This document shows positions 2,863 to 28,756 of a stretch of DNA of 32,000 nucleotides, piece by piece. The DNA lies in contig CP064962.1 of the NCBI GenBank assembly GCA_016699145.1, positions 900,001 through 932,000 on the forward strand, in the 5' to 3' direction. The stretch comes from Candidatus Saccharimonadota bacterium (lineage in GTDB: Bacteria > Patescibacteriota > Gracilibacteria > UBA1369 > 2-02-FULL-48-14). How positions within the stretch are numbered: position 1 is the first letter of the stretch; the number at the start of each line of letters is the position of its first letter. The notes under the pieces are model-generated. The model had not been told where the DNA came from. It made no database searches and saw only the letters and a program-made list of their open reading frames with translations. The position numbers were made by a program, and so were the translations under genes.

Positions 2863-2891
2863 TTGACTCGAATACCCCACTGGGGTATTCT
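2863..2891 (+). promoter_or_regulatory. csoR-1 promoter with a CsoR-type operator in the spacer
   Basis: TTGACT (2863-2868), 17-nt spacer, TATTCT (2886-2891). The 9-1-9 palindrome AATACCCCA-C-TGGGGTATT (2871-2889) lies in the spacer. The ATG at 2898 is 7 nt past the -10 hexamer. Confidence 0.55.
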
Positions 2892-2897
2892 CGGAAC

Positions 2898-5653: not shown

Positions 5654-6508
5654 ATGATGAAAAAACTCTCTATATTTTTAAGCCTTTTTACTCTCATTTT
5701 GAGTGCGTGCAACACTTCCGCAGAAGTAAGTATTTCTCATGCCCACGGGCTAGCGGTGGATTCGCAAAACTCAAACCGTGTCTTAATCGCTACCCACCAA
5801 GGATTGCTGAGTTGGGAGGATGGAATCCTTTCCCAAGTGGGAACCAGTCAAAGCGACCTCATGGGCTTTACCCCTCATCCATCACAAGAGAACACCTATT
5901 ATTCAAGCGGACATCCTCAAATGGGGAGCAATCTTGGTTTCCAAAAGACCAGTGACGGAGGAGAGAATTGGGAGCTCATCTCGCTCGGAAGTGACGGGCC
6001 TGTGGATTTCCATGCAATGACGATCAATTCAAAAGACCCAAATGTGGTTTATGGCTGGTATCACGGCGCTTTACAACGAAGTTTAGATGGTGGGGGTACT
6101 TGGGAAGTTTTGAATACCACCTTGAGTGAGGTCATTACTTTGAATGGGACGGCAGACGATCCATCAACGGTTTATGCAGGAACTTCGCAAGGGCTACTTG
6201 TAAGCACAGACAAAGGGGAAACGTGGGGTCTTCTAAGCGAAGACCTAATGGGCAGCGTTGTGATTGCCCTTGCCGTCAACCCTACCGATTCAATGGAAAT
6301 GCTTTCTTTTTCAGGCCGTCTAGGCCTGGCAAAGAGCACCGATGGCGGAAAAACTTGGAATTCAAGTGATGCAGAATTTGGTCAAGATTTCCCTTTGTAC
6401 ATTGCATATAGCAAAACAGAGCCGAGTACCATTTATCTCCTCACTAAAGAGAATAAACTCTACCGAAGTGTCGACGGTGGAGACACATGGAATCCGCTTG
6501 AATCCTAA
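5654..6508 (+). CDS. Asp-box (BNR-like) beta-propeller lipoprotein
   Basis: Lipobox LILSAC. Five S/T-x-D-G-G-x-T/N-W boxes (TSDGGENW, SLDGGGTW, STDKGETW, STDGGKTW, SVDGGDTW). Roughly 55% identity by eye to the C-terminal half of 29403..31289. Confidence 0.7.
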   Translation: MMKKLSIFLSLFTLILSACNTSAEVSISHAHGLAVDSQNSNRVLIATHQGLLSWEDGILSQVGTSQSDLMGFTPHPSQENTYYSSGHPQMGSNLGFQKTSDGGENWELISLGSDGPVDFHAMTINSKDPNVVYGWYHGALQRSLDGGGTWEVLNTTLSEVITLNGTADDPSTVYAGTSQGLLVSTDKGETWGLLSEDLMGSVVIALAVNPTDSMEMLSFSGRLGLAKSTDGGKTWNSSDAEFGQDFPLYIAYSKTEPSTIYLLTKENKLYRSVDGGDTWNPLES

Positions 6509-6518
6509 CTCACAGAAC

Positions 6519-7484
6519 ATGAAAAAAATAATAGCACTCAGCAGTGCAATTCTTATGGTGATTGGCCTCAGCTTAATGAACTTAGGCTCCAACATAGCTT
6601 ACTCTGAAAACATTGCAGCCGATCCCTCAGATCTCCCCGCTCCCCTTACCCGAACAGAGCCGCAAACCGTCGAGATTGAACTTGAAGCCAAGGAGGTACG
6701 ATCTGAAATCGCAGAGGGTGCCACCTACTCTTATTGGACTTTCGATGGCCAAGTGCCAGGGCCTTTCTTGCGTGTTCGCCAAGGAGACACCATCAAGCTC
6801 ACGCTCACAAATAATGAGGCAAATGAAAACCATCACAGCATTGATCTTCACGCCGTAACAGGGCCAGGAGGTGGAGCGGAAGCAACGACTGTGAAGCCTG
6901 GCGAATCCAAAACAGTAACCTTTAAGGCTCTCAACCCTGGCCTCTTTGTTTACCACTGTGCCCATCCCAGTGCGGCGGTTCATATGTCTCATGGGATGTA
7001 TGGCCTAATTTTGGTAGAACCTGAAGGGGGACTTCCACCCGTCGATCACGAGTTCTACGTCATGCAGGGCGAGTTCTACTCAAACGAGAAGAATCTCAAT
7101 GAGCCAAAGTACATTGTCTTCAATGGGAAGGGCGAATCCTTAGATGGCAAGATGATCGTCAGCGTGAACGATACGGTGCGCATTTACATGGGCAACGGCG
7201 GGGTGAACTTTATTTCTTCCTTTCATATTGTGGGTGAAATCTTTGACCAGGTTTATCCTGAAGCATCAATAGGCAACGAAACCCACAAGAATATACAAAC
7301 CACCCTTGTCCCAGCAGGAGGAGCCACGATTGTGGAGTTCACAGCAGAAATGCCTGGGGATTACTTTCTGGTCGATCATGCTCTCGCTCGTATCAGCAAA
7401 GGAGCCATAGGCACATTGACTGTGCTAGGCGAAGAAAATCATGCTATATTTGAGGGCGAGGAGGCCCACGGCCACAATCATTAA
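6519..7484 (+). CDS. NirK-like two-domain cupredoxin enzyme (copper nitrite reductase family / multicopper oxidase)
   Basis: Signal/TM segment. HHSIDLHAVTGPGGG, FVYHCAHPSAAVHMSHGMYG, SSFHIVGEIFD and LVDHALA align to the NirK type 1 and type 2 Cu ligands and to catalytic Asp/His positions. His-rich tail EEAHGHNH. The ATG at 6519 is preferred, because the track start at 6342 overlaps the previous gene. Confidence 0.75.
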   Translation: MKKIIALSSAILMVIGLSLMNLGSNIAYSENIAADPSDLPAPLTRTEPQTVEIELEAKEVRSEIAEGATYSYWTFDGQVPGPFLRVRQGDTIKLTLTNNEANENHHSIDLHAVTGPGGGAEATTVKPGESKTVTFKALNPGLFVYHCAHPSAAVHMSHGMYGLILVEPEGGLPPVDHEFYVMQGEFYSNEKNLNEPKYIVFNGKGESLDGKMIVSVNDTVRIYMGNGGVNFISSFHIVGEIFDQVYPEASIGNETHKNIQTTLVPAGGATIVEFTAEMPGDYFLVDHALARISKGAIGTLTVLGEENHAIFEGEEAHGHNH

Positions 7485-7503: not shown

Positions 7504-8112
7504 ATGAAAAACTTTACACTTCTTTCTTCTGTTCTTGCAGCCTCCCTACTCTTGGCAGCCTGTGAAACCGAGTCCCGTGACGATGACAGGATGATGGACA
7601 ACGATTCTTCGATGATGGATCACGGCGATGAAGACATGGATCACATGATGGGAAACGGAATGATGATGGATGACGACATGATGGGGATGATGATTCGAAA
7701 TGATGAAGACTTTCTTTCAATGATGATCCCTCACCATCAGGAAGCCATTGATACGGCAAAAGTCATTTTGGAGAAGTCTGAAAATGCCGAGCTAAAAGCT
7801 TTAGCTCAAGCCATTGTGGATGCTCAAACTGCTGAAATCACTCAAATGGAAGACTGGGGAAAAGAGTGGTTTGGAACAGAATTCAAAGCAAGCGATGATT
7901 ATGAAGAGATGATGCCTGATCTCTCAGTCCTAGAAGGTGAAGAACTCGATCAAGCCTTTATTGAAGGCATGATTGAGCACCATCAAATGGCTATCATGAT
8001 GGCCATGCGACTCCAAATGATCACCGAACGTCAGGAACTTAAAGACATGGCTGATGCGATCATCGATGCCCAAAGTGCTGAAATCGATATGATGGAAGGC
8101 TGGTTGAACTAA
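7504..8112 (+). CDS. DUF305-family lipoprotein with an N-terminal Met/Asp/His-rich segment
   Basis: Lipobox LLAAC. MMDNDSSMMDHGDEDMDHMMGNGMMMDDDMMGMM, followed by two DUF305 half-repeats (PHHQEAIDTAK and EHHQMAIMMA). Confidence 0.8.
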   Translation: MKNFTLLSSVLAASLLLAACETESRDDDRMMDNDSSMMDHGDEDMDHMMGNGMMMDDDMMGMMIRNDEDFLSMMIPHHQEAIDTAKVILEKSENAELKALAQAIVDAQTAEITQMEDWGKEWFGTEFKASDDYEEMMPDLSVLEGEELDQAFIEGMIEHHQMAIMMAMRLQMITERQELKDMADAIIDAQSAEIDMMEGWLN

Positions 8113-10109: not shown

Positions 10110-10316
10110 ATGTACAACTGGAATACCAACACAGTGGCTCTAAAGAAAGATCCAGAAAAATTCAAGATATGGAGTCTAGAACAGGCCATCAATTTTGGTT
10201 TAAATGGAGAGAAAATAAACAAGAAGGAACTAAAGAAATATTTCTCAAAACTTAAGCTAGATCCATCGCGAGCAAAATTCATTCAATTGCTAATCAATGG
10301 AAAAAATTCTCACTGA
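10110..10316 (+). CDS. small protein upstream of, and overlapping, the AbiEii-like gene (possible non-canonical antitoxin)
   Basis: 68 aa and Lys-rich. It overlaps the downstream toxin-like gene by 20 nt. No AbiEi wHTH recognised. Confidence 0.4.
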   Translation: MYNWNTNTVALKKDPEKFKIWSLEQAINFGLNGEKINKKELKKYFSKLKLDPSRAKFIQLLINGKNSH

Positions 10317-10953
10317 ACGACAGGTTGCTCTACTTGAAGAAATAGGTCGACAAGCTTTTTTATCAAAGAATTTTTATTTGAGCGGAGGCACAGCGCTGGC
10401 AGGTTTTTACCTCTTCCACCGCTATTCCGAAGACTTGGACTTTTTCTCAGAAAATGAGATCGATCCCCTGCAGATCAACATCTTTTTTAAAAGCATACAG
10501 AAGACGTTCAAAATCAAAAAAATCGATTACGAACAAAGCTACAATCGAAATCTATTCTTTCTCCATTTTGACGATGAAATTTTGAAGACGGAATTCACTT
10601 ACTATCCCTTCCCCAGGATTAAAGAAGGTCAGCAAAAATTCGGAATTTCCATCGACAGTCTTCTAGATATCGCCGTAAACAAATTGTTCACTATTTATCA
10701 ACGCTGCAAAGCCCGAGATTACATTGACCTCTATTGTATCTGTAAAAAAGAACAACTTTCAATAAGTGACTTGATTCAAACGGCAAAAATAAAATTCGAC
10801 TGGCACATCGATCCCATCCAACTTGGCACCCAATTCATCAAATCCACGCAGGCCGAAGATCACCCTCATATGATTCAGGAACTGGACGAAAAAAATTGGC
10901 AAAACTTTTTTATTGAAGAAGCGCAGAAATTTGGACCAGATATTTTGAAATAA
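10297..10953 (+). CDS. AbiEii/AbiGii-family nucleotidyltransferase (type IV toxin-like)
   Basis: LSGGTALAGFYLFHRYSEDLDFF matches the GGTAL...HR-S-DLDF motif of DUF1814/AbiEii. Confidence 0.7.
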   Translation: MEKILTERQVALLEEIGRQAFLSKNFYLSGGTALAGFYLFHRYSEDLDFFSENEIDPLQINIFFKSIQKTFKIKKIDYEQSYNRNLFFLHFDDEILKTEFTYYPFPRIKEGQQKFGISIDSLLDIAVNKLFTIYQRCKARDYIDLYCICKKEQLSISDLIQTAKIKFDWHIDPIQLGTQFIKSTQAEDHPHMIQELDEKNWQNFFIEEAQKFGPDILK

Positions 10954-12054: not shown

Positions 12055-14349
12055 TTAATCCACCAAGTCCAAAATCCAAATGGCACCGTGATCATTTCCA
12101 AGATCACCATCGGAACGTGCCCCCACCACGATGGAATTCGTTTCAGGACCGGCAGCAATGGACAAGCCAAATTCATCGTATGGCCATCTGTAGACCTCTG
12201 ATAAATCCAATTTTTGATAACTTTTCAAAGTGCCGTCGCGATCCATGAAGTAAATCCACAAACCACGGACTGCTTCGGTGCTGCCATTGCTCGTCCCCAA
12301 AACCAAATCGTTGTTACCATCTCCATTCAGATCACCCATATTTGCAATGGAATCACCGAAGTGATCACTGGAAGGTGCTACAAAACTTCTATTCTCGTTA
12401 TTGATCAAAGAATAAGAACGCACCGTCCCATTTGAATTCATGAATAAGATCCACGTGGTTCCTCCCGTAAAGCCTAGGGCATTAGCACTGGAAGTGACGG
12501 CAATATCAAGTACTCCATCCCGATTCAAATCACCGGCCGAGCTAATCGCATTACCAAAGTGATCCTCTTCATCCAGGGGGCCATCAAAACCACCTTGATT
12601 GTCGCCAACCTTTTGACTGCTTTTAACCGTTCCATCTTGATTCATGAACAAAATCCAAAAAGCCCCGATGTTGGACTGCCCCGTAGCTTTGTCTCGCACA
12701 CTCACGGCTATGTCTATGACTCCATCTCCGTTGAGGTCTCCAATGTTCGCAAGCGCTTCACCAAAGTAGTCCCCCAAAGCCAGTACATTCCCTAAGCCGC
12801 CATACGTATTGCTGATTTTCTGCTGATCTTTCACCGTACCGTCTTCGTTCAAGAAGAGAATCCAAATCGCTCCCGCACCAGACGCACCATCGTTGTCCAC
12901 CTGCACACCCACTGCTAGATCTTCTACCCCATCTCCATTCAAGTCCCCCAAGCCAGCTAAAGAAACACCAAAACTAGCATAATTCCCAATGCGTGGAACA
13001 AACCCTCCTTCGGTGTCGCTGATTTTCTGCTGATCTTTCACCGTTCTATCCGAATTCATAAAAAGAATCCACACCCCTCCCCGTGATTCTCCACCGTCAT
13101 CCCCTCGCTCACCCACGGCAAGATCCTCTACTCCGTCGTTATCCAAATCGCCGATCGTTGTCACCGATTGGCCAAGATGACTACGCTCTCCCAATTCTCC
13201 GTCAAAACCACCGATAAGGTCATTGATTTTTTGCTGTTCGCCAAGCTCAAAAGTCGCTTCAAGCGCACTCACTTCCAAGTTGAGGTTCTCATCCAAGGTA
13301 ATGTGGTAGCCTGTGGGCCAGAAATCAGGAGGATCTTTGAGGATGCAATGAAGATCAAACTGGATCACTTCCACGCTTTCTATGGAACGGACACTGCCTT
13401 CGTTGCCGCTGCACTGCTCCAAGTTCTTCACATCCATGAATTCCATCTCTTCATCAAACAAATACAACTGAAGTTCGCCATCCACAGCAGCAGCAAAAAG
13501 GAAGTAAGTACTAGCGACGCAATGGTAGGCATACTCTACAGAGAGCCCACTTTCTGAAATGTATTCTTGAAACTGCTGAAAAGCTTCCATGTCTTGAGCG
13601 GCACTCGTAGAAGCATAACAGCGTTGACTAGGGATTTTGAAGGTTTCTGAACGATATTCATCCCTCAAATAAGGGTCAAACTCATCCCATTCATTCTCAG
13701 TGACCAAAAACGCTCGGTAAATCATTTCTGCGGCAGAGCCACGATTCATGTCCATTGCGGGATGAAAGAAGAAAGAATCTTCATCCAATAAATTCAGATT
13801 ATCCAGCAAGCTTAAATGCGGTGCGTACCAAGCCTTAGGGTCAGCATCCGCCCAATTACCAAAGGAATGTTCCAAAGAGTAATAATCGTAGCTGTCTAAA
13901 TACTCCGTCCATGCTGTCTCTTCAAACAAAGCGTTTTCAATGATCTTAGCTGCCTCCACTTTATTGACCTCGTTACCAGGCCGATAATAGCCATCGGGAT
14001 AACCCTCAATCCACCCCTGCTCTTTTCCATAGCAAACGTAGGGTGCAAACCACTCTTCTTTCACATCTGGGAAACAATTCAAATATTCAGACGAGTCAAA
14101 TTCAAGATCCAATGTTTCCACAATGATTTTTACAAGTTCCGCACGGTTGACGCTGGAATCGGGTCGGAAGGTGCCATCTGAATATCCTTCTATAACATCG
14201 TAATAGCCCAAATGCTCAATCGCTTCGTGATTCTCGTGGTTTGAGTCGACATCTGAAAAAGAGACCCATGCAGCGTCGACATGGTTTGACATTAACCAAA
14301 GGCTGAGCCCTAAACCCAAAACAAAGGTAAAACTTTTCTTAATACACAT
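12055..14349 (-). CDS. secreted SLH-domain + FG-GAP repeat (integrin-alpha-like propeller) surface protein
   Basis: Signal peptide from the ATG at 14349. SLH-like repeats (FSDVD...AIEHLGYYDVIEGYSDGTFRPDSSVNRAELVKII; CFPDV...GYPDGYYRPGNEVNKVEAAKII). Seven C-terminal repeats of the form GDLNGDGVxDLAV...WILFMNxDGTVK. Confidence 0.8.
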   Translation of the reverse strand: MCIKKSFTFVLGLGLSLWLMSNHVDAAWVSFSDVDSNHENHEAIEHLGYYDVIEGYSDGTFRPDSSVNRAELVKIIVETLDLEFDSSEYLNCFPDVKEEWFAPYVCYGKEQGWIEGYPDGYYRPGNEVNKVEAAKIIENALFEETAWTEYLDSYDYYSLEHSFGNWADADPKAWYAPHLSLLDNLNLLDEDSFFFHPAMDMNRGSAAEMIYRAFLVTENEWDEFDPYLRDEYRSETFKIPSQRCYASTSAAQDMEAFQQFQEYISESGLSVEYAYHCVASTYFLFAAAVDGELQLYLFDEEMEFMDVKNLEQCSGNEGSVRSIESVEVIQFDLHCILKDPPDFWPTGYHITLDENLNLEVSALEATFELGEQQKINDLIGGFDGELGERSHLGQSVTTIGDLDNDGVEDLAVGERGDDGGESRGGVWILFMNSDRTVKDQQKISDTEGGFVPRIGNYASFGVSLAGLGDLNGDGVEDLAVGVQVDNDGASGAGAIWILFLNEDGTVKDQQKISNTYGGLGNVLALGDYFGEALANIGDLNGDGVIDIAVSVRDKATGQSNIGAFWILFMNQDGTVKSSQKVGDNQGGFDGPLDEEDHFGNAISSAGDLNRDGVLDIAVTSSANALGFTGGTTWILFMNSNGTVRSYSLINNENRSFVAPSSDHFGDSIANMGDLNGDGNNDLVLGTSNGSTEAVRGLWIYFMDRDGTLKSYQKLDLSEVYRWPYDEFGLSIAAGPETNSIVVGARSDGDLGNDHGAIWILDLVD

Positions 14350-14463
14350 TGGGTCGAAGTAAAAAACTAAACAGGCCCAATATAACACAGCCAAAGATTC
14401 AGAGGTATCTCACTCTTAGCAATCACTATTCCTCTATCTCTTCCAATCCATTACTGGATTACT

Positions 14464-14609
14464 CGGTCATCGTTTTCAATTTTTAACCTGATGGCGGGCC
14501 ATTCGGGTCTACTACCCTTTAAGTGGTCTCATTTTAGTGTTTCTTGCCGTGAGACACAATTGTCGTGTTTCAGGCTAAATGAGACATTTGAGACAGTATA
14601 AAAAGGGGC
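14464..14609 (+). repeat. 146-bp direct repeat, copy R1 (left boundary of the cassette)
   Basis: Aligns without gaps to 17633-17778, with 11 mismatches by my count (about 92%). The first 57 bp are identical. It contains three GAGACA boxes. Confidence 0.9.
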
Positions 14610-14628
14610 AGATTAAATCACCTCCACT

Positions 14629-14964
14629 CTAGTTTCCTGGAGTTCGATGTGAGAACCGGACCGGGTTTGGTTTTTGCATTCTTGGACCACGTATATTCAG
14701 CTCTAAACTTTCTCCTGCTGCTAATGTTTGAACAATATCGAAGTGAGTTGAGAGTACTTCTCTCGTCACCCCTTCTACGATATCTACTCCCGCTCGGGAT
14801 CTAAATACAGTTGAATCTCTATCATTTCGGTTGCATTCAAAAATATAGATTTCACGAGTGCCATCATCTTTAATATTGGACATCGAACCTGGACGTACAC
14901 CTGGCTCTAGTACTCCAATCTCTCTCCAGTTTCCTCCCGCAGAAATTTCAACGTGTAAGGGCAT
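14629..14964 (-). CDS. hypothetical protein A of the cassette (111 aa from the ATG)
   Basis: Clean ORF with apparently beta-rich composition. No motif recognised. The ATG at 14964 is preferred over the TTG at 14985. Confidence 0.5.
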   Translation of the reverse strand: MPLHVEISAGGNWREIGVLEPGVRPGSMSNIKDDGTREIYIFECNRNDRDSTVFRSRAGVDIVEGVTREVLSTHFDIVQTLAAGESLELNIRGPRMQKPNPVRFSHRTPGN

Positions 14965-15006
14965 AACAAATGGTTTAGATGGCAATCGTACCCCAATTTA
15001 AATAAA

Positions 15007-15049
15007 TGTCAACTTATTGATTGACAATATAGAGATTATATTGTAGCAT
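15007..15049 (+). promoter_or_regulatory. divergent control region of cassette genes A and B
   Basis: Inverted repeat TGTCAA (15007-15012), 8-nt spacer, TTGACA (15021-15026). The TTGACA also serves as a candidate -35, 17 nt upstream of TAGCAT (15044-15049). Confidence 0.35.
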
Positions 15050-15069
15050 TCATACTATTAATCTGTTCT

Positions 15070-16077
15070 ATGCCTACACCTGCTACCGCACTACAACCCT
15101 TTGAAGCACCTGAATACGAGCAAATCAAATCCCCTTTTCAAAAAGCAGTTGAAGAATGGTTTGCAAGAATGGGAGCTAGTTGGAAACATTTAATCATTGA
15201 CCCTAATAATCCTGGCCTTCAAGGGAGAATGGCTTTCGACCCGCAAGCAATAGAACAGTTTTTACAGGATCAATTTCACGAATTTTGGAAGTCCCTTTCA
15301 GAACAGCAGAAACAAATCTTTGGCCGTAACAATGATAGAATGGGGTGGAGGCTTTTCTTCATTGAAACAGCCACTACTATGTTCAATATCACACTCATGC
15401 ATGGTATCGAGAGAGGAGTGATTGCTCATCCAGATGGAAAAATCACTGGAACAGAAAGAGCGGGAATGCCAGGTTCTCTTGAAAACGACACTGCTCGAGC
15501 TAGGGGGTCTATGATGTTCGCCTTGGGAAATGCTCTTGCCGAACGTTTGAAGAATTCTTCTTCAGGTGATGCAGAAGAAGATAAACAATTCATGGATGCC
15601 CTAATGGACTATCTTGGTTTGGATATAGACCGTGCGAATGCTTTGATGTCTAGAGTCTTGGATCACCATGGAATCCCAAATATTCACAAGGCTCAACACC
15701 ATTATGGTGCTCTTCTCAAGACCGCTCTTCTTCAGTGTCATGGAAGTATGCATCCTTACTGGCGAACAACTCCCGAGGAAGTCATCCCTGATCAAATGCA
15801 AAAATATAGGTGGCCAGCAGCTTATTGCCAGTTGCCACTTTTAGATGTGGTACTGGGAGATTCTCTTTGGTTTTATGATCCAGTAAACATCAGAGCATTT
15901 CACGACGATTTAAAGGCTCGTCACCCAGAAACCGAGGAAGACCCTTTTGGACCCAACATTGAAGCTCGTTGCCAGCAAGGACAAAGAATCATTGACGCAC
16001 TGCAAGCTTTCCGAGCACGACTTCTCGGTGGCGCTCCCCAGATTGCTGGAGGTGCACAACGTTTGTTGGTCGATTAA
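15070..16077 (+). CDS. hypothetical protein B of the cassette (335 aa, apparently helical)
   Basis: Long clean ORF. No signal peptide, TM helix or catalytic motif recognised. Confidence 0.6.
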   Translation: MPTPATALQPFEAPEYEQIKSPFQKAVEEWFARMGASWKHLIIDPNNPGLQGRMAFDPQAIEQFLQDQFHEFWKSLSEQQKQIFGRNNDRMGWRLFFIETATTMFNITLMHGIERGVIAHPDGKITGTERAGMPGSLENDTARARGSMMFALGNALAERLKNSSSGDAEEDKQFMDALMDYLGLDIDRANALMSRVLDHHGIPNIHKAQHHYGALLKTALLQCHGSMHPYWRTTPEEVIPDQMQKYRWPAAYCQLPLLDVVLGDSLWFYDPVNIRAFHDDLKARHPETEEDPFGPNIEARCQQGQRIIDALQAFRARLLGGAPQIAGGAQRLLVD

Positions 16078-16100
16078 CAGTATTTCATAAAAACGAGCTT

Positions 16101-17579
16101 ATGTCTGGGTTAGCGAGACCACTAGCGTCTGAAGGAGAGAACGACCAGTTCCAACCATTGAATGGTGGTGCTGTCGATCGTCAGCAAGGCCCAGCCGTTT
16201 CTGTTGAGCAAGACATTGGTTTGAGGGCCGTTCAGGCTTTAGACCCGACCAGGGTGAAATATCAGAATTGCATCGACACCGCTTTTCTGGAGCCTGAAAC
16301 CGTGCCTTCTTTGGAAGAAGTGAGACGTAAAACAAGAGAATTGAACCCCGATCAGACCGATGAGAAACTTTTCACTGCTCGAACCTGGGATGTAGGGCGT
16401 TTTGAAGAAACCAATTTACCCGTTGTTGCAGGTCAACTGAAGGATAAAGAAGCATTCGGTGTTCAAAGAGCCATGCGAATCCTCGATCTACCAATCAAGA
16501 TGCCGGGGCAAGGATGGAAAATCCCAGAGGAATTGGCTCAATTCCAGGAAGCCATTGCCCTCGCTGTGGCTCAAGAACGCATGGTCAATCCTGACTTTGA
16601 TGACGACTACTACGCTTACATCATTGTAGATCAAAAGGTGGTTCAACCTGGGCAGAATCAACGCAGAGCAGGGTATCACAGTGACGCTTTTGTGACGGGA
16701 GACACGGAACTTGAAGTGGATGGTGAAGAAGCTTCTCGCAAAGTTGATCGCACCTATATTGTTTACGACACTTTGCCCACGGGATTCATCCCTGGACCGA
16801 TGCCTCTCGACTGTGACCCAGAGGACTGTGAACAGGTTTTGGAAAGTTTTGCCGAGCGTTCTCAAGATCAAAACCCACGGCTCTATCCGACTCATACCGT
16901 TTTACGTTTGGATCCTTACGATCTGCACACCTCCCGCACCAATGAGACCGAAGATCCTATCCTACGTACTTTTGTGAAAATTTCTTTCAGTAAATCGGTT
17001 TACAACCGTGAAGGCAATGATGTGAATCCTCACTTCAACTACAACTGGACGCTGGTGCCTCGTGACCCTGCCAAGCGTGAACATCGAAATCATATTATTG
17101 GTGCAGATCGAGTCGATAGAGATCAGTTCTTGGCCATTGATCCTAAGAGCATCGATTTTGAAAATGATGAAATCCCTTGGATAGAACCTGGCGTTTTCAC
17201 TGCCCACAAAACAGAAGGAGTACACGCAGTGCCTGCGATTCCAGGTGAGAAACTCGAGACCAAGGTGGGAAATTTCCTTGTCACAGTCAACACCGCTAAG
17301 GAAGGATATTGGAAAGTGACCACCAGCCAAGGGGATGAGTACTTCTTGGACGGAAAACGCTTCCATGACAACTACGAAAATGAGCCTGATGCAAAAGGTA
17401 TTTGCCTGCCTAAAGGCATGCCACGAAAAATGGTAAAACTCTCTAGAGATGTCTGTTTCGTGGCTCCCTGGGGAGGCATGCAATATGTTCCGAAAGGAGG
17501 TGTACTTGTCGTCTCAGATAAGTACGACATTTACGGAATTCATCCCAGTAACTTCGAGGCCTCTTTTGCGAGAGCTTAA
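16101..17579 (+). CDS. hypothetical protein C of the cassette (492 aa), with a possible H-x-D...H metal-site core and two C-terminal beta-rich modules
   Basis: Starts 23 nt after gene B. The core is YAYIIVDQKVVQPGQNQRRAGYH193SD195AF ... DLH276TS ... R289TFVKISFS. The two C-terminal modules span roughly residues 360-425 and 440-490. Confidence 0.65.
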   Translation: MSGLARPLASEGENDQFQPLNGGAVDRQQGPAVSVEQDIGLRAVQALDPTRVKYQNCIDTAFLEPETVPSLEEVRRKTRELNPDQTDEKLFTARTWDVGRFEETNLPVVAGQLKDKEAFGVQRAMRILDLPIKMPGQGWKIPEELAQFQEAIALAVAQERMVNPDFDDDYYAYIIVDQKVVQPGQNQRRAGYHSDAFVTGDTELEVDGEEASRKVDRTYIVYDTLPTGFIPGPMPLDCDPEDCEQVLESFAERSQDQNPRLYPTHTVLRLDPYDLHTSRTNETEDPILRTFVKISFSKSVYNREGNDVNPHFNYNWTLVPRDPAKREHRNHIIGADRVDRDQFLAIDPKSIDFENDEIPWIEPGVFTAHKTEGVHAVPAIPGEKLETKVGNFLVTVNTAKEGYWKVTTSQGDEYFLDGKRFHDNYENEPDAKGICLPKGMPRKMVKLSRDVCFVAPWGGMQYVPKGGVLVVSDKYDIYGIHPSNFEASFARA

Positions 17580-17632
17580 TGTCTACGCTACATCTGCAGA
17601 TTTATCCCAATGCCCCTTCCCCCTAGGTAGTA

Positions 17633-17778
17633 CGGTCATCGTTTTCAATTTTTAACCTGATGGCGGGCCATTCGGGTCTACTACCCTTTAGACGGTCTAA
17701 TTCTAGTGTCTCTTGCCGTGAGACACAAATGTAGCGTTTCAGGCTAAACGAGACACTTGAGACAGTATAAAAAGGGGC
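17633..17778 (+). repeat. 146-bp direct repeat, copy R2 (right boundary of the cassette)
   Basis: Same orientation and length as R1 at 14464-14609. See R1. Confidence 0.9.
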
Positions 17779-17816
17779 CGAGCGCGAGGGGTGTTGACGA
17801 AAGCAAAAATTATATT

Positions 17817-17831
17817 GAGCCTGCGAGGCTC
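17817..17831 (-). terminator. hairpin downstream of the short CDF gene
   Basis: GAGCCT-gcg-AGGCTC, a perfect 6-bp stem, lies 9 nt past the stop at 17840. On the minus strand it is followed by AATATAATTTTT. Confidence 0.4.
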
Positions 17832-17839
17832 ACCGCTGT

Positions 17840-18463
17840 CTAAACGCGATCCGCTTTCAAGGCTTCACGGATAATTCCGATAGACGAATGTAGCACAAAA
17901 ACCGCAATTCCTAACCCAACGAGAATGTCGGGGATCATGGAATTGAAGTAAGCAACCAAAAGGCCAGCCACGATCACACTCACATTCCCAAAAACATCGT
18001 TGCGAGAACAGATCCAAGCAGACTTCATGTTGAGATCACTAGACTTGTACCTGGACAGCACATACAGACAAAGAGCATTCGCAAGAAGGGCCACTCCCCC
18101 AATGATAGAAATGGTTTCGGCCGTAGGGAGAACGGGATGAATGATTTTAATCACTGTGGCAAAAACGACATAAATGCCTAAAAGACTCATCACGATTCCT
18201 TTCAACAAGGAGGCACGAGCCTTTGCCTTATCGTTTCGAAAGACTACAAAGAGACTGATGCCATAGACAAAAGTGTCCGCGAGCATATCCAAGGAGTCCG
18301 CTGTGAGTGCATTGGAATGTGACAAAAATCCAGCAATTGCCTCCACGAAGAACATGACCAAGTTCACCAAAAGGACAAACACGAAAACATTCCGCAATTT
18401 TTTGTTGTGGCGGTTCTTGAGGTCGACGTTTTCGGCGGCGCAGCAGCAGTCAGCCATAGGCAA
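17840..18463 (-). CDS. short cation diffusion facilitator (six TM helices, no cytoplasmic C-terminal domain), with an N-terminal CCC motif
   Basis: 207 aa. SLDMLADTF in TM2 and RNDVFGN in TM5 sit at the CDF metal-site positions. The N-terminus reads MADCCCAAE. Confidence 0.7.
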   Translation of the reverse strand: MPMADCCCAAENVDLKNRHNKKLRNVFVFVLLVNLVMFFVEAIAGFLSHSNALTADSLDMLADTFVYGISLFVVFRNDKAKARASLLKGIVMSLLGIYVVFATVIKIIHPVLPTAETISIIGGVALLANALCLYVLSRYKSSDLNMKSAWICSRNDVFGNVSVIVAGLLVAYFNSMIPDILVGLGIAVFVLHSSIGIIREALKADRV

Positions 18464-18517
18464 GCATTCTAGTTCAGCACCCTAGAATTTCAAAACCAAA
18501 AGAGTAAGCTATCCCCG

Positions 18518-19389
18518 ATGAAAGACCACGACCACTCCACTAGCAACATCAAGACCGCCTTCCTTCTGAACCTCTTTTTCACGGCCTTTGAAGTGGTGGG
18601 AGGAATTTTAACAAACAGCACCGCCATCCTCTCGGATGCGCTCCACGATTTTGGAGACTCTATTTCTTTGGGTCTATCGCTCTACTTGGAGAAAAAAGCA
18701 CAAAAAGACCGTAACGCCACATTCTCCTATGGTTTCAAACGCCTTTCCCTTTTAAGCGGACTCATCAGCAGTCTCATCCTTACCACTGGCTCCATCTTCA
18801 TTCTATCTGAAGCCATTCCACGAATCATGAATCCCGAGCACGCCAATGCGAAGGGCATGTTGGGTCTAGCCATCGTGGGCATCCTGGTCAACGGGTTCGC
18901 GGCCCTACGCACAAGAAGTGGAAAAACGGTGAACGAGGAGGTGGTCACGTGGCATCTCCTGGAAGACATGCTGGGTTGGATCGCCGTCTTCGTGACCAGT
19001 TTGGTGATGCTCTTCTTCGATCTTCACATTCTTGATCCCCTCCTGTCGGTGGCAATTACGCTCTTTGTGCTGTGGAATGTGCTGAAAAGACTCAAGTACA
19101 CCCTCAAGCTTTTCTTCAAGCAGTGCCCCACAACCTTTCCATCAGAAACATCGAAAAGAAACTGAAAGGAGTGTCCAGCGTAAAGCTCGTCCACGACACG
19201 CATCTGTGGTCCTTGGACGGTGAGAACCATGTTCTATCGACCCACTTAGTCATTCAAAAGAATCTGACCATTTCAGAGGCCTTGGATGTGAAGTGCCGCG
19301 CCAAAGAAGTGATACAAAAGATGGGCATCAGTCACGCCACGGTAGAAATAGAGAAGGAAAACGAAAGCTGTAATCTGAAAAACCACTAA
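18518..19389 (+). pseudogene. czcD: CzcD-type cation diffusion facilitator carrying a frameshift
   Basis: The TM domain (HDFGD in TM2, HLLED in TM5) is in the frame of 18518..19165. The C-terminal domain (FLQAVPHNLSIRNIEKKLKGVSSVKLVHDTHLWSLDG) is in the frame of 19072..19389. The junction is at the T4 run 19110-19113. Confidence 0.8.
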
Positions 19390-19391
19390 AG

Positions 19392-20168
19392 GTGACCCTA
19401 CTTCACGCTTTCATTTTAGGGATTGTAGAAGGGTTCACAGAGTTCCTGCCCATCTCCTCCACCGCGCACCTCGCTTTGACGGGGAAGCTCTTAGGCCTTG
19501 AGCAAACAGAGTACTTCAAGAGCTTTGAAATCATAATCCAACTGGGAGCCATCTTGGCGGTCATCGCTCTTTATTGGAGAAGCCTACTACAGTGGGAAGT
19601 GATCAAGCGGCTCATTGTGGGTTTTATCCCAACGGGAATTTTAGGTCTCTTGTTTTACAAACTGGTGAAACTTTATTTGCTCGAAAGTTTTCCAGTGATG
19701 CTCACCGCTCTGCTTGTGGGAGGCATTTTGCTGATCGTCTTTGAGAAAACCCACACAGAAAAGAAAGGTGAAGTCAAAGGGGTGGCCGCCATTCCCTACA
19801 AAACATGCCTCTACATAGGCCTATTCCAATCCTTAGCCATGATTCCTGGCGTTTCTCGCTCCGCTGCCACGATTGTAGGAGGCCTCTTGCTGGGACTTCA
19901 AAAGAGAACGATTGTGGAGTTCTCCTTCCTCCTCGCAGTGCCCACCATGCTCGCAGCCAGCTCTTTGGATATTTATAAGAATGCTCAAAGCTTCACGAGT
20001 GACCAAACGGTGCTTCTCAGTGTTGGGTTCGTAACTTCATTTGTTATGGCCCTCGTGAGCATCAAATTCTTGCTCGCCACCGTGCGGAGACAAACCTTCA
20101 GTGCGTTTGGTTTCTATAGGATTGGGATTGCTTCCGTCTTTTTCGTTCTCTTCGCCCTTGGGTTTTAG
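19392..20168 (+). CDS. uppP: undecaprenyl-diphosphate phosphatase
   Basis: ILGIVEGFTEFLPISSTAHL, PGVSRSAATI and 8 TM helices. GTG start. Confidence 0.9.
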   Translation: MTLLHAFILGIVEGFTEFLPISSTAHLALTGKLLGLEQTEYFKSFEIIIQLGAILAVIALYWRSLLQWEVIKRLIVGFIPTGILGLLFYKLVKLYLLESFPVMLTALLVGGILLIVFEKTHTEKKGEVKGVAAIPYKTCLYIGLFQSLAMIPGVSRSAATIVGGLLLGLQKRTIVEFSFLLAVPTMLAASSLDIYKNAQSFTSDQTVLLSVGFVTSFVMALVSIKFLLATVRRQTFSAFGFYRIGIASVFFVLFALGF

Positions 20169-20539
20169 GAGCCAGAATGTACCTCCAGAGTCACCTTTGC
20201 GCTAAAGAAAATGATCAGAACAATCACAAGTCCAGCCAGGTCTTCCACGCGTCCATAGCCATAGGTGAAGCGTGAAGTGGCCTTCTTTCGGGCAAACAAA
20301 AAAGCGATCCCCAGTGGAATGGCTGTCGCAGCATCACCAAAGTTGTGAATGGTGTCAGCGAGCAGAGCCACACTTCCTGAAAAGATCACCACAACCACTT
20401 GAATGAGTGCGGTGATGGCAAGACCCACAAAAGACCACTTGATGGCCCACAGTCCACGGGCGGATGTCGTAATGGAAGCATCCACCACTCCATGGGTATG
20501 ATCGTGGGAAAATTCTTGGAGATTGCTGTGTTTGTGCAT
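20165..20539 (-). pseudogene. N-terminal fragment (about 124 aa) of a CDF transporter
   Basis: MHKHSNLQEFSHDHTHGVVD...SGSVALLADTIHNFGDAATA...FTYGYGRVEDLAG ends within TM3. A full-length CDF is about 300 aa. The 3' end abuts and overlaps the uppP stop. Confidence 0.6.
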
Positions 20540-20595
20540 CTGATTATTAAGGTACAATAGCCTCATACTGATGTAAACAAGCCAAGAATCTTAGT

Positions 20596-21829: not shown

Positions 21830-22102
21830 ATGGTCAACCAAAGTATTAAAAAGCGAGCGTTGCATCGCGCTAAGATCCTTAAAGGTCAGCTCGAGGCACT
21901 CATGCGAAGCATCGAAAGTGAGGAGTATTGTACTTCACTGCTTCATCAATCCTACTCCATCCAAAATTCGCTCAAAAGTTTAGACAAACTACTTTTGGAG
22001 AATCATCTGGGTTCTCACGTCAGGCACCAAATGCAGGACCCGGCGCAGCAAGAAAAAGCAATTAAAGAGCTGATTGAAGTTTATACCTCGTCACATCGTT
22101 AG
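21830..22102 (+). CDS. CsoR/RcnR-family repressor, divergent copy 3
   Basis: 90 aa. KILKGQLEALMRSIESEEYC34...ENH59LGSH63 has the same C-H-H spacing as copies 1 and 2. Confidence 0.8.
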   Translation: MVNQSIKKRALHRAKILKGQLEALMRSIESEEYCTSLLHQSYSIQNSLKSLDKLLLENHLGSHVRHQMQDPAQQEKAIKELIEVYTSSHR

Positions 22103-22644: not shown

Positions 22645-22666
22645 TTTGAAAAGCACAACCCTAACA

Positions 22667-24931
22667 ATGAACACCACTACTTATAAAATCAAAGGCATGC
22701 ACTGCGCTTCTTGCGCGGGGATTATTCAAAGAACGTTTAAGAAAACGGAAGGAGTGAGTGCAGCAGAGGTCAATTACGGAACGGAAACTGCAAAGGTCAC
22801 CTTTGATGAGCACAAAGTGCACGCGGCCGACCTTTCAAAAAAGATTGAACCGCTTGGCTACACCCTCGTGCTTGAGGAAGACCACTCCAAACACACAGGC
22901 ATGGGCCAAACCAAGATAGAAAAGCTCAAAGAACTTTCAGAGCTCAGAACCTTGGTTCTCTCCGCCCTTCCTTTGGCTGCCTTCAGTATTGTAGCCATGA
23001 CATGGGACATCCTGGTTCAATTTGAAGTGCTGGCCCCCATGTCCGAAACCTTGAGCGAATTCTTCCACCACCTTCTCCCTCTCATGGCGACCTACGTGCT
23101 CTTTGTGGTGGGCAAACCCTACTTGCTTGGTTTTTATCGCTTCCTCCGATACGGCAAAGCAAACATGGACACGCTCATCGGAATTGGAACCGTGGCTGCC
23201 TACTTGTACAGCTTTGTCGTCACTGCTTTTGAGGCACCGCTTTCTGCGTACATCAACACGGAGCACAGCTACTACGATGTGACCATCGTGGTCATAACCT
23301 TCATTACACTGGGCAAGTATTTAGAATCGCGATCGAAACTCAAAACAGGGGACGCCATTGAAAAACTCCTCAATCTGCAGGCTAAAACCGCTCTCGTGCT
23401 CCGCGATGGTAAAGAAGTGGAGCTTCCGATTGATCAGGTCGTGAAAGGAGATCTGATCGTTGTGAAACCAGCAGGTAAAATCCCCGTGGATGGAGAACTC
23501 ACGGAAGGCTCTTCTTACATCGATGAATCCATGGTCACGGGAGAACCCATGCCAGTGCATAAAACCGTAGGCGACAAGGTAGTGGGAGGAACCATGAACA
23601 CGAGTGGGGCCTTCACTTTCAAGGCAAGCAAAGTGGGATCCGAAACCATGCTGGCTCACATCATCAAGATGGTGGAAGAAGCCCAAGGCAGCAAAGCGCC
23701 CATTCAAGCTTTAGCCGATAAAATCTCGAGCGTTTTCGTTCCCGTCGTCTTGGTCTTCGCTTTTGTTGCATTGGCGGTGTGGCTGAGTGTTGGGACTTTA
23801 TATCTAGGCTTTTCACAAGCCCTCTCCTACGGACTCGTTTCCTTCGTGAGTATTCTGGTGATCGCTTGCCCCTGTGCTCTTGGCCTGGCGACTCCCACTG
23901 CGATCATTGTTGGAGTGGGTAAAGGAGCGAAAGAAGGGATCCTCATCAAAGACGCAGCGACGCTCGAAAAACTTCACAAGGTGACCACCGTGGTCGTGGA
24001 TAAAACGGGAACAATCACCAAAGGAAAACCCGAGCTCATTTCGATCATCAAGCTGTCCGATAAAACAGACGACGAACTGCTTTCCATCCTTGCTTCCCTC
24101 GAAAAGAAGTCCGAACACCCCATTGCTCACGCCATCTTAAATGCGGCGACTGAGAAAAAACTTTCACTCCATACGGTCACAGACTTTGAAGGGATAAAAG
24201 GGAAAGGACTCAAGGGAACGATTGGGGCGACCACTTATTATGTGGGCAATGAAAAACTGATCCATGACCTCAAACTCAAAATGGATTCCAGCTTGATTGA
24301 AAAGGAAACGGCACAAGGCAAAACTCCAATCATTCTCGCTACAGAGAAGGAAGTGCTCGCCATTGCCCTGGTTGCAGATGCGATTAAACCAGAGGCCAAA
24401 GCAGCCATCGCTCAGCTCCATAAAATGGGACTTAAGGTCGTGATGCTGACGGGTGACAATACGAACACGGCAAAATTCATCGCAAGTGAAGCAGGCATAG
24501 ATGAAGTGGTAGCCGAAGTACTGCCAGAAGATAAACTCAAAAAAATCAAAGCACTTCAGGCCGAAGGTAAAATTGTTGCCATGGCGGGAGACGGCGTGAA
24601 CGATGCCCCTGCTCTGGCTCAGGCAGACGTAGGAATCGCAATGGCAACAGGCACCGACGTTGCCATTGAATCCGCAGGAATCACCCTACTCCACGGCGAC
24701 ATCTCCAAGCTGGTCAAAGCCATCTCCCTCTCAAAGATGACGATGCGCGGCATTAAACAAAATCTATTCTGGGCCTTCTTTTACAACATTGTCGGCATCC
24801 CTCTAGCAGCAGGTGCCTTCTACCCACTATTTGGATGGCTGCTCAGTCCCGTTTTTGCAGGACTCGCCATGGCCTTCTCAAGCGTGTCGGTGGTGGGAAA
24901 TTCCCTAAGGCTAAAAACAAAGAAACTATGA
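22667..24931 (+). CDS. copA: Cu(I)-translocating P1B-type ATPase, intact
   Basis: [55 protein letters not shown]. The ATG at 22667 is preferred over the TTG at 22646. Confidence 0.95.
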
Positions 24932-25429: not shown

Positions 25430-26089
25430 TTATTTAAGTTTAAGTTCAGCTTCGATTAAAGCCTTAAGTTCATCGTAAGTGGGGATGCCATCGAGTTGCT
25501 GTCCATTGAAGAAAATGGTGGGCGTGCTGTCCACTCCCAACGCTTTTCCATCCACCTGGTCTCTCAAAATCTTGTCTTCATACTTCGTGCTGTTGATGAC
25601 CGCACTGAAGGCTTCAAGGTCGAGACCCAGTTCTTCCGCATAAGAAAGGAAGAGTTCGGTTTGAGGAGTGGTTTTCTCTCCCCATTCAAGTTGATTCTCA
25701 AACAGTAAGTCGTGCATCTCCCAGAACTTGCCCTGCTCCCCTGCCGCTTCCGCAGACTTGGCTGCTAGCACCGAGTTGTTATGGAAGGGAAAGTTGCGAA
25801 ACACAAAGTTCACCTGGCCTTCGTAATCCTCTAAAATCTGCTTCAAAATAGGATGAGCCATTCTGCAAGCTTCGCATTCTAAATCCGCAAACTCAACGAT
25901 GGTGATTTGGTCATCGGCAGCGACAATCTTTTGACTGTCTTCACGAACGAGCAAACTGGCATCTGCAGGTGGCGTATCTACGACGGGCTCGCCTGCATTA
26001 TGAGATGTGCTGCTGAAGTAAAGAACTCCCAAAACGATAAGACCTACAGCAGTTAAGGTGCCTACAATGAATTTTGAATCTTCAGACAT
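25430..26089 (-). CDS. membrane-anchored DsbA-family thiol:disulfide oxidoreductase
   Basis: N-terminal TM. IVEFADLECEACRMAHP carries a CxxC active site. FRNFPF and GVDSTPTIFFNG indicate a thioredoxin fold. Confidence 0.85.
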   Translation of the reverse strand: MSEDSKFIVGTLTAVGLIVLGVLYFSSTSHNAGEPVVDTPPADASLLVREDSQKIVAADDQITIVEFADLECEACRMAHPILKQILEDYEGQVNFVFRNFPFHNNSVLAAKSAEAAGEQGKFWEMHDLLFENQLEWGEKTTPQTELFLSYAEELGLDLEAFSAVINSTKYEDKILRDQVDGKALGVDSTPTIFFNGQQLDGIPTYDELKALIEAELKLK

Positions 26090-26091
26090 AG

Positions 26092-26520
26092 TTACTTTTG
26101 GTTAGACTTACGAAATAAAAGAAGGGAGACCGTGATGACGGTGAAAGCAGTAAGAGACATGAAAGGAATGGTGATGAAGCCGAACCATTCAAAGAACTTG
26201 GTGGTACAGGATATTCCCGCTCGGCAAGGAGCTAAACTCTCTGGAATGATCTCCCAGTAGAGAAGGTTGTGATACACGGCTATACCAAAACCTATCAGGG
26301 ATAAAGGCAAGGCGTAGAGGTAAACTTTAACGTCTCTAGTGAGGATTCCCACGGCCAGAATGAACACCAGCGGGTACATGGCAATGCGTTGATACCAACA
26401 CAGCACACAAGGTGGCAGGTCCATGACTTCACTGAAGTAGAGGCTGCCTAGGGTGGCTACAAGTGACTGAATCCAGCTTAGATAGATGATGTACTTGGAT
26501 TGAAAAGAGGTTTTCATCAC
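26092..26520 (-). CDS. DsbB/BdbC-type disulfide bond formation protein
   Basis: LPPCVLCWYQRIAMYP, 4 TM helices, and a second Cys pair (APCRAGISC). Confidence 0.85.
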   Translation of the reverse strand: MMKTSFQSKYIIYLSWIQSLVATLGSLYFSEVMDLPPCVLCWYQRIAMYPLVFILAVGILTRDVKVYLYALPLSLIGFGIAVYHNLLYWEIIPESLAPCRAGISCTTKFFEWFGFITIPFMSLTAFTVITVSLLLFRKSNQK

Positions 26521-28565: not shown

Positions 28566-28703
28566 CCCCTAGGTCTTAGGGTCATAGGTTCAAATGATGC
28601 ACTTCTAAAAAAGTGAGGAGGAAGACTTGAGCGTGCGTAGTCTTTTTTCGTTGGGTCTCGTAGGCCCCGACGGCAAGAAACACTTGAGACGGTACAAAAA
28701 GGA
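28566..28703 (+). repeat. degenerate third copy (R3) of the 146-bp repeat family
   Basis: The left end cccctaggt...gggtcataggttcaaat resembles ccctaggtagtacggtcatcgttttcaat in R2. The right end ACACTTGAGACGGTACAAAAAGG matches ACACTTGAGACAGTATAAAAAGG in R2. The interior is diverged or deleted. Confidence 0.45.
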
Positions 28704-28726
28704 ATTATTTGTAATGGGAGTCTCAA

Positions 28727-28756
28727 TTGACTTATAATACCCCCTATGGGTATTAT
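28727..28756 (+). promoter_or_regulatory. csoR-2 promoter with a CsoR-type operator in the spacer
   Basis: TTGACT (28727-28732), 18-nt spacer, TATTAT (28751-28756). The operator AATACCC-cctat-GGGTATT spans 28736-28754. The ATG at 28765 is 9 nt past the -10. Confidence 0.5.

Follow-up and report, generated by a model that had tools for sequence, protein, structure and literature searches.

Direct repeats around three orphan genes in a Patescibacteria genome are probably copies of a dispersed intergenic repeat family

In the genome of Candidatus Saccharimonadota bacterium (Gracilibacteria; contig CP064962.1 of assembly GCA_016699145.1), three genes lie between two direct copies of an intergenic repeat. 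The genes, called A, B and C here, correspond exactly in sequence to NCBI proteins IPG41_05175, IPG41_05180 and IPG41_05185, and the repeat is called R. Positions 900,001 to 932,000 of the contig were analyzed. This stretch of 32,000 nucleotides is referred to as the window, and coordinates are counted from its first letter. A preliminary description of the locus had treated R and the three genes as a self-contained module of 3169 bp, acquired or able to loop out through the R copies and encoding an undescribed three-protein system. The features concerned are listed below.

14432 to 14612, plus strand: R1, a full R-family copy (pairwise repeat 14464–14612, covariance-model core 14489–14610)
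14629 to 14964, minus strand: gene A, 111 aa when read from the ATG at 14964, the start given in IPG41_05175 (the open reading frame (ORF) is 118 aa from a TTG at 14985)
14965 to 15069: A/B control region, 105 bp, with two putative back-to-back divergent sigma-70-type promoters
15070 to 16077, plus strand: gene B, 335 aa, divergent from A
16101 to 17579, plus strand: gene C, 492 aa, starting 23 nt after B
17620 to 17781, plus strand: R2, a full R-family copy (pairwise repeat 17633–17781, covariance-model core 17658–17779)
28566 to 28706, plus strand: R3, a degenerate third R copy, upstream of a csoR-like operon

A repeat search of positions 13000–19500 returned a single strong direct-repeat family, consisting of 14464–14612 and 17633–17781. 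The two copies are 149 nt each, align without gaps at 92% identity and are spaced 3169 nt apart. They differ at 12/149 positions, 11 of them inside the 146 nt delimited originally, and the first mismatch is position 59, which makes the identical lead 58 nt rather than the 57 first reported. A pair of this kind cannot have arisen by chance in 32 kb. Exactly three genes lie between the copies, with the sizes and strands first given for them. The flanks of R1 and R2 are unrelated; they do not align past the repeat ends and carry no target-site duplication. Most mismatches are T/C, with A in R1 at 2/12 and A in R2 at 4/12. A diversity-generating retroelement was rejected because the mismatches are not confined to adenine, both copies are intergenic and the window holds no reverse transcriptase. 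Identity of R with CRISPR or tRNA/tmRNA was not supported either.

Homology at the level of the family extends further than the pairwise repeat. It starts near 14432 in R1 (CTCTATC..., the 5′ extension module), and the extension of R2 begins at CCCCTAGG (17620). A covariance model scores R1 at 135.7 bits (E 2e-34) and R2 at 133.3 bits. The extension variant CGGTCATCGTTTTCAATTTTTAACCTGA is private to R1 and R2, and a different variant is common to R3 and the copy in L038 (loci compared with the window carry numbers prefixed with L). Beyond position 58, 13% of the sites differ between R1 and R2, and L038 is equally close to each. The core identity of R1 and R2 is 91%, while that of each to the L038 copy, which belongs to another species, is 92%. 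At 8% overall divergence an identical run of 58 is improbable (P ~0.008). The private 5′ variant together with the divergent remainder points to recent duplication, or a gene-conversion tract, between copies of an old family. R1 is the counterpart of the R copy adjoining A in L010, and R2 is the counterpart of the R copy preceding a CDF gene in L020.

The third copy in the window, R3, has an intact 5′ extension module (28566–28603), a terminator-like hairpin (28620–28648) in place of the middle and a remnant of the 3′ module (28645–28706) that the covariance model recognizes at E 9e-4. Intact R occupies the same place in the orthologous loci L034 and L037. The promoter (TTGACT...-10) and the operator of the csoR operon both lie outside R. 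This operator, ATACCCCCTATGGGTAT, is of the classic CsoR type; it lies at 28727–28753, inside the promoter and just upstream of the csoR-like gene 28765–29037, and is conserved in L034 and L037.

Copies of R were also found in many other genomes. The 22-mer at its 3′ end (GAGACAYTTGAGACAGTATAAA) has 32 exact matches in GTDB species-representative genomes. Most are in Peribacteria, and others are in metagenome-assembled genomes (MAGs) of Roizmanbacteria, Amesbacteria, Woesebacteria, Dojkabacteria, WWE3 and Gracilibacteria, all within the Candidate Phyla Radiation (CPR). Some matches are in MAGs labelled Gammaproteobacteria or Bdellovibrionales. At least two R-bearing MAGs carry wrong taxon labels, as L020 and L037 (CAYGGQ010000092.1 and CAZAJN010000040.1, labelled 'Gammaproteobacteria' and 'Bdellovibrionales') are collinear with Peregrinibacteria DNA. 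Their collinearity with the window or with the Peribacteria locus L034, at 82–90% DNA identity, indicates that the contigs are mis-binned or the MAGs mislabelled. The other non-CPR labels among the matches (L018, L039, L041, L043–L045) may be wrong too. Searches with nhmmer and with the covariance model, which was built in this analysis, were run over 274 kb of loci, and the covariance model gave 48 matches. Six copies are on one 1.3-Mb chromosome, OZ246396.1, between 394 and 1300 kb.

R is modular. An optional 5′ extension (CCTAGG-N7-GGGTCAT...) is followed by a 5′ module of 26–30 nt (TGGCKGGCCAYTCGGGTCTAGTACCC) that is also found alone, then by a variable middle with TGTCTCA/TGAGACA inverted repeats, and finally by a 3′ module (GGCTAAATGAGACAYTTGAGACAGTATAAAAAGG) that is almost invariant. 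In the alignment the long form measures about 120 nt in Peribacteria and R measures about 95–105 nt elsewhere; the shorter forms are those of Microgenomates, Dojkabacteria, WWE3 and Gracilibacteria. All forms terminate in ...GGCTAAATGAGACATTTGAGACAGTATAAAAAGG. Solo 5′ modules occur in L042, L015, L026, L022, L033, L035 and L038 and solo 3′ modules in L023, L027, L040, L018 and L039. Degenerate or truncated copies are R3, L022 7188–7308 and L035 4730–4844. In Microgenomates-type R (L019, L029, L036, L041, L045) a further conserved stretch lies directly 3′ of the short form. There, (A)TGTCTCA completes an inverted repeat with the last TGAGACA, and TGATGTATTTTGATATAGT follows some 10–20 nt on.

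The family is apparently uncatalogued so far. At gathering thresholds Rfam 15 has no match in the whole window, and in E-value mode the sole match in 14380–14700 was a sub-threshold CRISPR-DR25 outside R. Scans of viral contigs for both R modules and a plasmid search with the whole cassette gave no match, and literature searches with R sequence strings and for CPR or Peribacteria repeats returned no relevant description. A metagenome scan with the 5′ 20-mer of R yielded two GC-rich chance matches within unrelated coding DNA, which were set aside. The possibility that R is a small protein-coding gene was ruled out. R1, L031 and L033 contain an in-frame ORF that begins at ATGGC... and ends with the TAA in GTATAAAAAGG, but premature stops interrupt it in R2, L021, L034 and L042, 1-nt indels occur in several copies, and a start codon is missing from many.

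R1 and R2 are probably neighbouring copies of this modular, non-coding, dispersed intergenic repeat family of Peribacteria/Peregrinibacteria, not the attachment sites of a three-gene element. The shorter forms in other CPR lineages appear, by sequence, to be shortened relatives of R. The DNA between R1 and R2 is best read as accessory material of two independent origins, the A/B pair and gene C.

A and B were found together elsewhere. A has one full homologue (82–83% aa identity, in L010) and one partial homologue (74%, in L011), both divergent from a homologue of B. B has four homologues at 43–70% identity, and a profile search of 1.84 billion cluster representatives placed the size of its family at seven representatives at E<1e-30. 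The divergent pair therefore recurs on two contigs, and R is beside A in one of them. L010 repeats the layout of the window, with the 3′ end of R, then A on the minus strand and B on the plus strand. In L011 the next gene after A–B codes for an unrelated membrane protein. In L049 the B homologue (43–45% identity) has a 135-aa gene unrelated to A on one side and a gene for a pyridoxal phosphate (PLP)-dependent decarboxylase on the other, and A, C and R are absent. In this region of L049 (2662–5688) the decarboxylase, a 500-aa protein of the Orn/DAP/Arg type, is encoded 25 nt after the B homologue, and a LysE exporter and a ParE/Phd pair are near. There are hints that B may take part in amino-acid or polyamine chemistry.

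The 105-bp spacer between A and B contains the palindrome TGTCAA (15007–15012)-N8-TTGACA (15021–15026), as had been described. In all likelihood the palindrome is simply the two −35 boxes of divergent sigma-70-type promoters, TTGACA being present on the minus strand at 15007–15012 and on the plus strand at 15021–15026. The −10 candidates are TAGCAT (plus) and TACGAT (minus), and L010 and L011 retain both −35 hexamers.

None of the three proteins has a match in Pfam, NCBIfam or PADLOC, the last searched as PADLOC-DB 2.0 defence-protein models at E<=1. The earlier statement that A, B and C cannot be placed in families therefore stands, with the one exception of phrog_1843 in C; in addition all three are very rare. 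Sequence and profile searches of PDB chains with B and C gave nothing significant, and GenBank phages hold no relatives of A or B. The AlphaFold2 model of B, made from 10 sequences, is confident and all-alpha (pLDDT 81.8, pTM 0.77), and in Foldseek it has nothing significant in the PDB (best E 0.26, TM ~0.2) or in BFVD.

C consists of a variable N-terminus, a central domain (residues ~95–335) and a C-terminal beta domain (~342–492). Three close homologues (65–72% identity) and two partial ones were found among 5.8 billion clusters. The nine contigs carrying C homologues (L001–L009) represent three different neighbourhoods and contain no homologue of A or B and no R. Residues 121–322 of C match phrog_1843 (E 1.7e-22), the only family match for A, B and C. 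A degenerate-pattern scan for viral relatives of C found none; tblastn against GenBank phages then revealed homologous ~220-aa proteins of the central domain in 39 phage genomes, with up to 38% identity (E 8e-45). The genes for these phage proteins often have a polynucleotide kinase, DNA ligase or helicase gene as a neighbour. In Erythrobacter phage XM05 the homologue is flanked by NAD-ligase and polynucleotide kinase genes, in Microbacterium phage Musetta it is flanked by genes for a helicase and a polynucleotide kinase, and in Ralstonia phage RPSC1 a ligase-like gene is near it. When the domain is aligned with six phage homologues, H104, D106, H187, R200 and S206 are invariant. These residues presumably recall the Fe(II)/2-oxoglutarate (2OG)-dioxygenase signature (an HxD...H metal triad and an R/S 2OG-binding motif, in that family on a double-stranded beta-helix fold), which we take as a lead only. 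The central domain has no Pfam or PDB profile match.

In the AlphaFold model of C, residues 1–340 are unreliable (pLDDT <50 in the central region) and residues ~342–492 are good (pLDDT ~80); Foldseek found nothing significant for it in the PDB. The APWG...GGVLV...DIYGI motifs of the C-terminal domain recur in two distant proteins. One of these proteins, P0005, has a weak match to PGDYG (PF14083) at 17.2 bits and E 0.0065, the gathering cut-off being 27 bits. C itself falls below every Pfam threshold, PGDYG included, and its C-terminal domain may be called PGDYG-like only weakly, through this distant homologue. Both phrog_1843 and PGDYG are families of unknown function. Outside C and its three close homologues, no protein was seen that fuses a phage-type domain to a PGDYG-like one.

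The pairing of A and B on L010 and L011, the other genes that follow B and the occurrence of C alone elsewhere suggest that A and B form a conserved divergent pair and that C is independent of them. The three-protein module proposed at first could draw on the direct repeats that bracket exactly three orphan genes, on the private 5′ variant with 58 identical leading bases, on R adjoining A in L010 as in the window, and on the lack of a known family for A, B and C. Against this, C never occurs with A or B elsewhere, nor A or B with C, R is dispersed, occurring a third time in the window and also in many genomes, and R2 matches the R beside CDF in L020 and so belongs to the flank rather than the cargo. 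No defence model matches the proteins, and no empty site was found. The nearest case is L020, which is syntenic with the window over 18.5–21.8 kb and has R upstream of its CDF gene; only 364 nt precede this R, unrelated to C or to the gene for a surface protein with SLH and FG-GAP domains (the SLH gene) near R1, which makes L020 neither a clean empty site nor a filled one. We consider such a module very improbable, and there is no evidence for a three-gene system. What survives of the proposal is that the DNA looks accessory and that the R copies bear signs of recombination, namely the private 5′ variant and the different subtypes at orthologous loci. Single accessory genes are often set apart by R modules, which also often mark the points where synteny breaks. 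The neighbourhood may therefore fairly be called 'repeat-delimited variable DNA', but this is a property of the R family and not of an A-B-C system.

R copies are intergenic and are found in all gene arrangements, divergent, tandem and convergent. The middle of R exists as subtypes that are up to 97% identical between genomes yet coexist within one genome (80–95%), and the orthologous loci L015 and L016 hold different subtypes. In the pairs L030/L038, L034/L037, L015/L016, L034/R3 and L020/R2, homology extends through R and 1.2–2.6 kb of its 3′ flank and ends at the 5′ edge of R. We infer that recombination at R caused both the synteny breaks and the similarity of R1 to R2. R copies would then act as portable homology, at which recombination and gene conversion would reshuffle or homogenize the flanking accessory genes. 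Ordinary homologous recombination of R1 with R2 could delete the 3169-bp unit.

Several points weigh against reading R as a dispersed repeat that spreads and recombines in this way. The synteny pairs were picked by matching genes in the 3′ flank, making their one-sidedness partly a selection effect, and R is in both of the compared genomes, which places each breakpoint only 'at or within R'. In the ~8 kb viewed around each copy and the 32-kb window of the source genome, the spread of R is not accounted for by any transposase, integrase, terminal inverted repeats or target-site duplication. The near-invariance of the 3′ module across CPR phyla and the retention of R at orthologous loci suggest a selected function over a merely selfish repeat. 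There is some compensatory change in three helices, which could mean a structured RNA. Finally, R, A and B have the same arrangement in L010, and R and A–B may move as a block.

A selected function would make R a structured small RNA, a leader RNA, or a TGAGACA-based protein-binding regulatory or insulator region kept beside envelope and metal-homeostasis genes. Conservation argues for it. Beside A in L010 the 3′ 45 nt of R are 96% identical whereas the adjoining coding DNA is 75% identical. Single-strand folding of R copies gave z-scores of −3.6 and −2.5. A three-helix model, in which GCCAC/GUGGC closes a GGGU/ACCC hairpin and UGUCUCA/UGAGACA forms a further stem, keeps 84% of its pairs in 48 model-fitted sequences. 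Ten pairs (27 cells) are changed on both sides, a count equalled in 0/500 shuffles. On an alignment not fitted to the model, 89% of the pairs are kept and covariation is modest. The reverse-complemented 5′ module lies 14–27 nt before start codons in more than 10 cases, and the families recurring near R include CDF transporters, CsoR- and ArsR-type regulators, UppP and SLH proteins.

Other results do not fit a regulatory or RNA function. The helices pair equally well on both strands (83.8% vs 83.4%), and G-U vs A-C pairs give no strand assignment. RNAalifold on the long and short forms of R found a weak consensus or none, and a naive covariation scan was uninformative. The three-helix result shows a conserved inverted-repeat architecture and falls short of proving an RNA. 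R has no terminator or consistent promoter, and the spacing of the reverse-complemented 5′ module to −10-like boxes varies, leaving it at most a candidate for a promoter of fixed geometry. In 19/37 cases the 3′ module shares its strand with the next gene, which means no polarity; with the separate promoter of the csoR operon outside R, this led us to reject the 3′ module as a general promoter of downstream genes. Neither side of R2 faces the start of a gene, some copies of R are degenerate or truncated, and TGAGACA, considered as a regulon motif, is not enriched in the window outside R. On balance a selected function is unlikely, but of some weight.

The arrangement of modules within loci recalls gene cassettes. 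L042 reads full R, gene, solo module, gene, solo module, gene, solo module; each of the three small genes in this row has a solo module at its end, overlapping the stop codon or directly adjoining it, 14–25 nt before the next ATG. Similar arrays are present in L015, L026, L035 and L022. All modules within a locus are co-oriented, with 23/23 on a shared strand in the 8 loci that hold at least two modules, for which the chance probability is estimated at ~3e-5. About 10/15 of the genes between modules read in the direction of the reverse strand of R. Synteny stops at the 5′ edge of R, and the cargo consists of unrelated small accessory genes. R might accordingly be part of an integron-like platform, in which full R on the reverse strand would be the head (attI- or promoter-like), the 26–30-nt solo modules would be attC-like sites after each cassette, and a recombinase encoded elsewhere would insert and excise single-gene cassettes at the edge of the module. 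However, no integrase adjoins any head element; none was found in the window ORFs scanned or among the recurrent neighbour families of 33 loci. By inspection the modules have neither attC R″/L″...L′/R′ cores nor the two-arm symmetry of recombinase sites. The cores R″ (RYYYAAC)...R′ (GTTRRRY) are absent from the ends of R and of the solo modules, also by inspection and with no attC model run. Part of the cargo runs antisense (in L033 and L038, as do genes B and C in the window), A and B carry their own predicted promoters, and copies are spread genome-wide rather than in one array. Homologous recombination between repeats would explain the same breakpoints. We regard the integron-like platform as decidedly improbable.

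Strand bias of the kind shown by R has been reported for single-stranded DNA (ssDNA) transposons. The six copies on OZ246396.1 (within L016, L022, L028, L031 and L033) are all on one strand, and the strand bearing R is the C-rich one (negative GC skew) in 24/33 loci. This strand pattern may be a replication-related strand bias. R could be a non-autonomous transposable element resembling a miniature inverted-repeat transposable element (MITE) or a palindrome-associated transposable element (PATE), for example an ssDNA mover derived from IS200/IS605 and mobilized in trans. It is multi-copy, intergenic, devoid of coding capacity and rich in hairpin-forming inverted repeats, and it is found across phyla. 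On the other side, the ends of R show no inverted repeat, as a MITE would, and the R1/R2 flanks no duplication. The left flanks of R are not conserved and have no common tetranucleotide; no TnpA/TnpB or other transposase is encoded in the 32 kb of the source genome or next to the copies. R was not found in viral contigs or plasmids, and the copies at orthologous loci look old. Such an element is quite unlikely.

A bolder idea joins some of these threads. R elements may be the working parts of an undescribed CPR gene-cassette system, with a structured head of 120–170 nt, solo recombination sites of 26–30 nt and a recombinase encoded elsewhere, or they may be a guide or scaffold RNA. Through R, CPR bacteria of the same or of different phyla would then insert, excise and exchange single accessory genes, or units such as A–B. 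This would explain the identity of the 3′ module across phyla, the strict co-orientation and the ending of synteny at the 5′ module. We hold it to be a long shot, and return to R as a dispersed intergenic repeat family.

One gene recurs near R outside the window. At six loci, and not in the window, R is followed 0–3 kb past its 3′ end by a convergent gene, on the other strand, for a Zn-ribbon/HTH_17 protein. The match of the C-terminus of this Zn-ribbon-rich protein to HTH_17 (excisionase-type) is weak.

L021 5268 to 6089, opposite to R: Zn-ribbon/HTH_17 protein
L023 5277 to 5921, opposite to R: Zn-ribbon/HTH_17 protein
L024 3652 to 4746, opposite to R: Zn-ribbon/HTH_17 protein
L026 2877 to 3929, opposite to R: Zn-ribbon/HTH_17 protein
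L030 1202 to 1669, opposite to R: Zn-ribbon/HTH_17 protein
L045 1592 to 2176, opposite to R: Zn-ribbon/HTH_17 protein

Domain scans of the ORFs identify the window as a copper/metal-resistance island. No integrase or transposase domain is present in the window ORFs scanned, in agreement with the preliminary description, which had also named the neighbours correctly: the SLH/FG-GAP gene, the CDF genes and a toxin-antitoxin islet. Apart from the CDF genes, the island contains the following.

2856 to 3170: CsoR-like gene
3618 to 5300: P-type ATPase gene
6342 to 7484: multicopper oxidase gene
7504 to 8112: gene for a DUF305 protein
21830 to 22102: CsoR-like gene
22646 to 24931: P-type ATPase gene
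25430 to 26089: DsbA gene
26092 to 26520: DsbB gene
26749 to 28128: gene for a DsbD-like/HMA/cupredoxin protein
28765 to 29037: CsoR-like gene

The window has four CDF genes, one frameshifted and one truncated. The frameshifted gene (cation efflux and ZT_dimer domains) is split into overlapping frames at 18518–19165 and 19072–19389, and its orthologue in L020 is intact at 290 aa. The split gene is either a pseudogene or a frameshift error of the long-read assembly. The truncated gene, 20165–20566 on the minus strand, is cut to its N-terminal 133 aa (Cation_efflux profile positions 4–82); its counterpart in L020 encodes ~308 aa. The toxin-antitoxin islet consists of an AbiEii-type nucleotidyltransferase toxin gene (10297–10953) and an overlapping small upstream ORF (10110–10316). 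A homologue with 84–91% identity is found in L033.

CPR bacteria, or Patescibacteria, have tiny genomes and are thought to be poor in repeats and mobile elements. R occurs in several CPR phyla, has no Rfam entry and lies at synteny breakpoints. A conserved intergenic element of this kind, with co-oriented modules, would be a useful marker of accessory-gene exchange among these episymbionts; the genes concerned include, for example, those for surface proteins and metal resistance. As a regulatory RNA or a recombination site R would be new, and it is a concrete candidate for either; of all that the analysis brought out, the R family is the most interesting. Of the proteins, B represents an orphan family with a confident fold that is matchless in PDB and BFVD, and C ties a widespread phage domain of unknown function, associated with DNA/RNA metabolism, to a bacterial gene.

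R can be compared with three groups of known elements. The PATEs of IS200/IS605 and the omega/reRNA regions of TnpB are, like R, hairpin-rich, strand-biased and without terminal inverted repeats, and in them too a highly conserved 3′ end stops sharply and gives way to unrelated sequence. R differs in having no tnpA/tnpB near it, no conserved target tetranucleotide and no match to Rfam models. Integron arrays and clusters of attC sites lacking integron integrases (CALINs), with their attI and attC sites, have co-oriented short sites after stop codons and shortly before the next start, as R does. In both, the sites separate unrelated single accessory genes, a longer head lies at one end, and variation between genomes sets in from the site. 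Unlike integrons, R has no IntI, attC core motifs or bulged-hairpin architecture. It is the sequence of the R site that is conserved rather than its structure, the arrays are many, short and scattered, and part of the cargo is antisense.

The third group comprises REP/BIME of E. coli, ERIC and the pneumococcal BOX (boxA-boxB-boxC). Each of REP, ERIC and BOX is limited to a single genus or family, and neighbouring REPs alternate in orientation. By contrast, the 3′ module of R is identical across several CPR phyla and R modules are co-oriented within a locus, and no RAYT-type gene (for a REP-associated tyrosine transposase) was seen near R. Like R, the elements of this group are non-coding, strictly intergenic and multi-copy, with lengths of ~30–170 nt. 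They share with R a modular build in which the parts are combined or solo, inverted repeats capable of forming hairpins, the lack of a transposase of their own, and placement between genes of any orientation.

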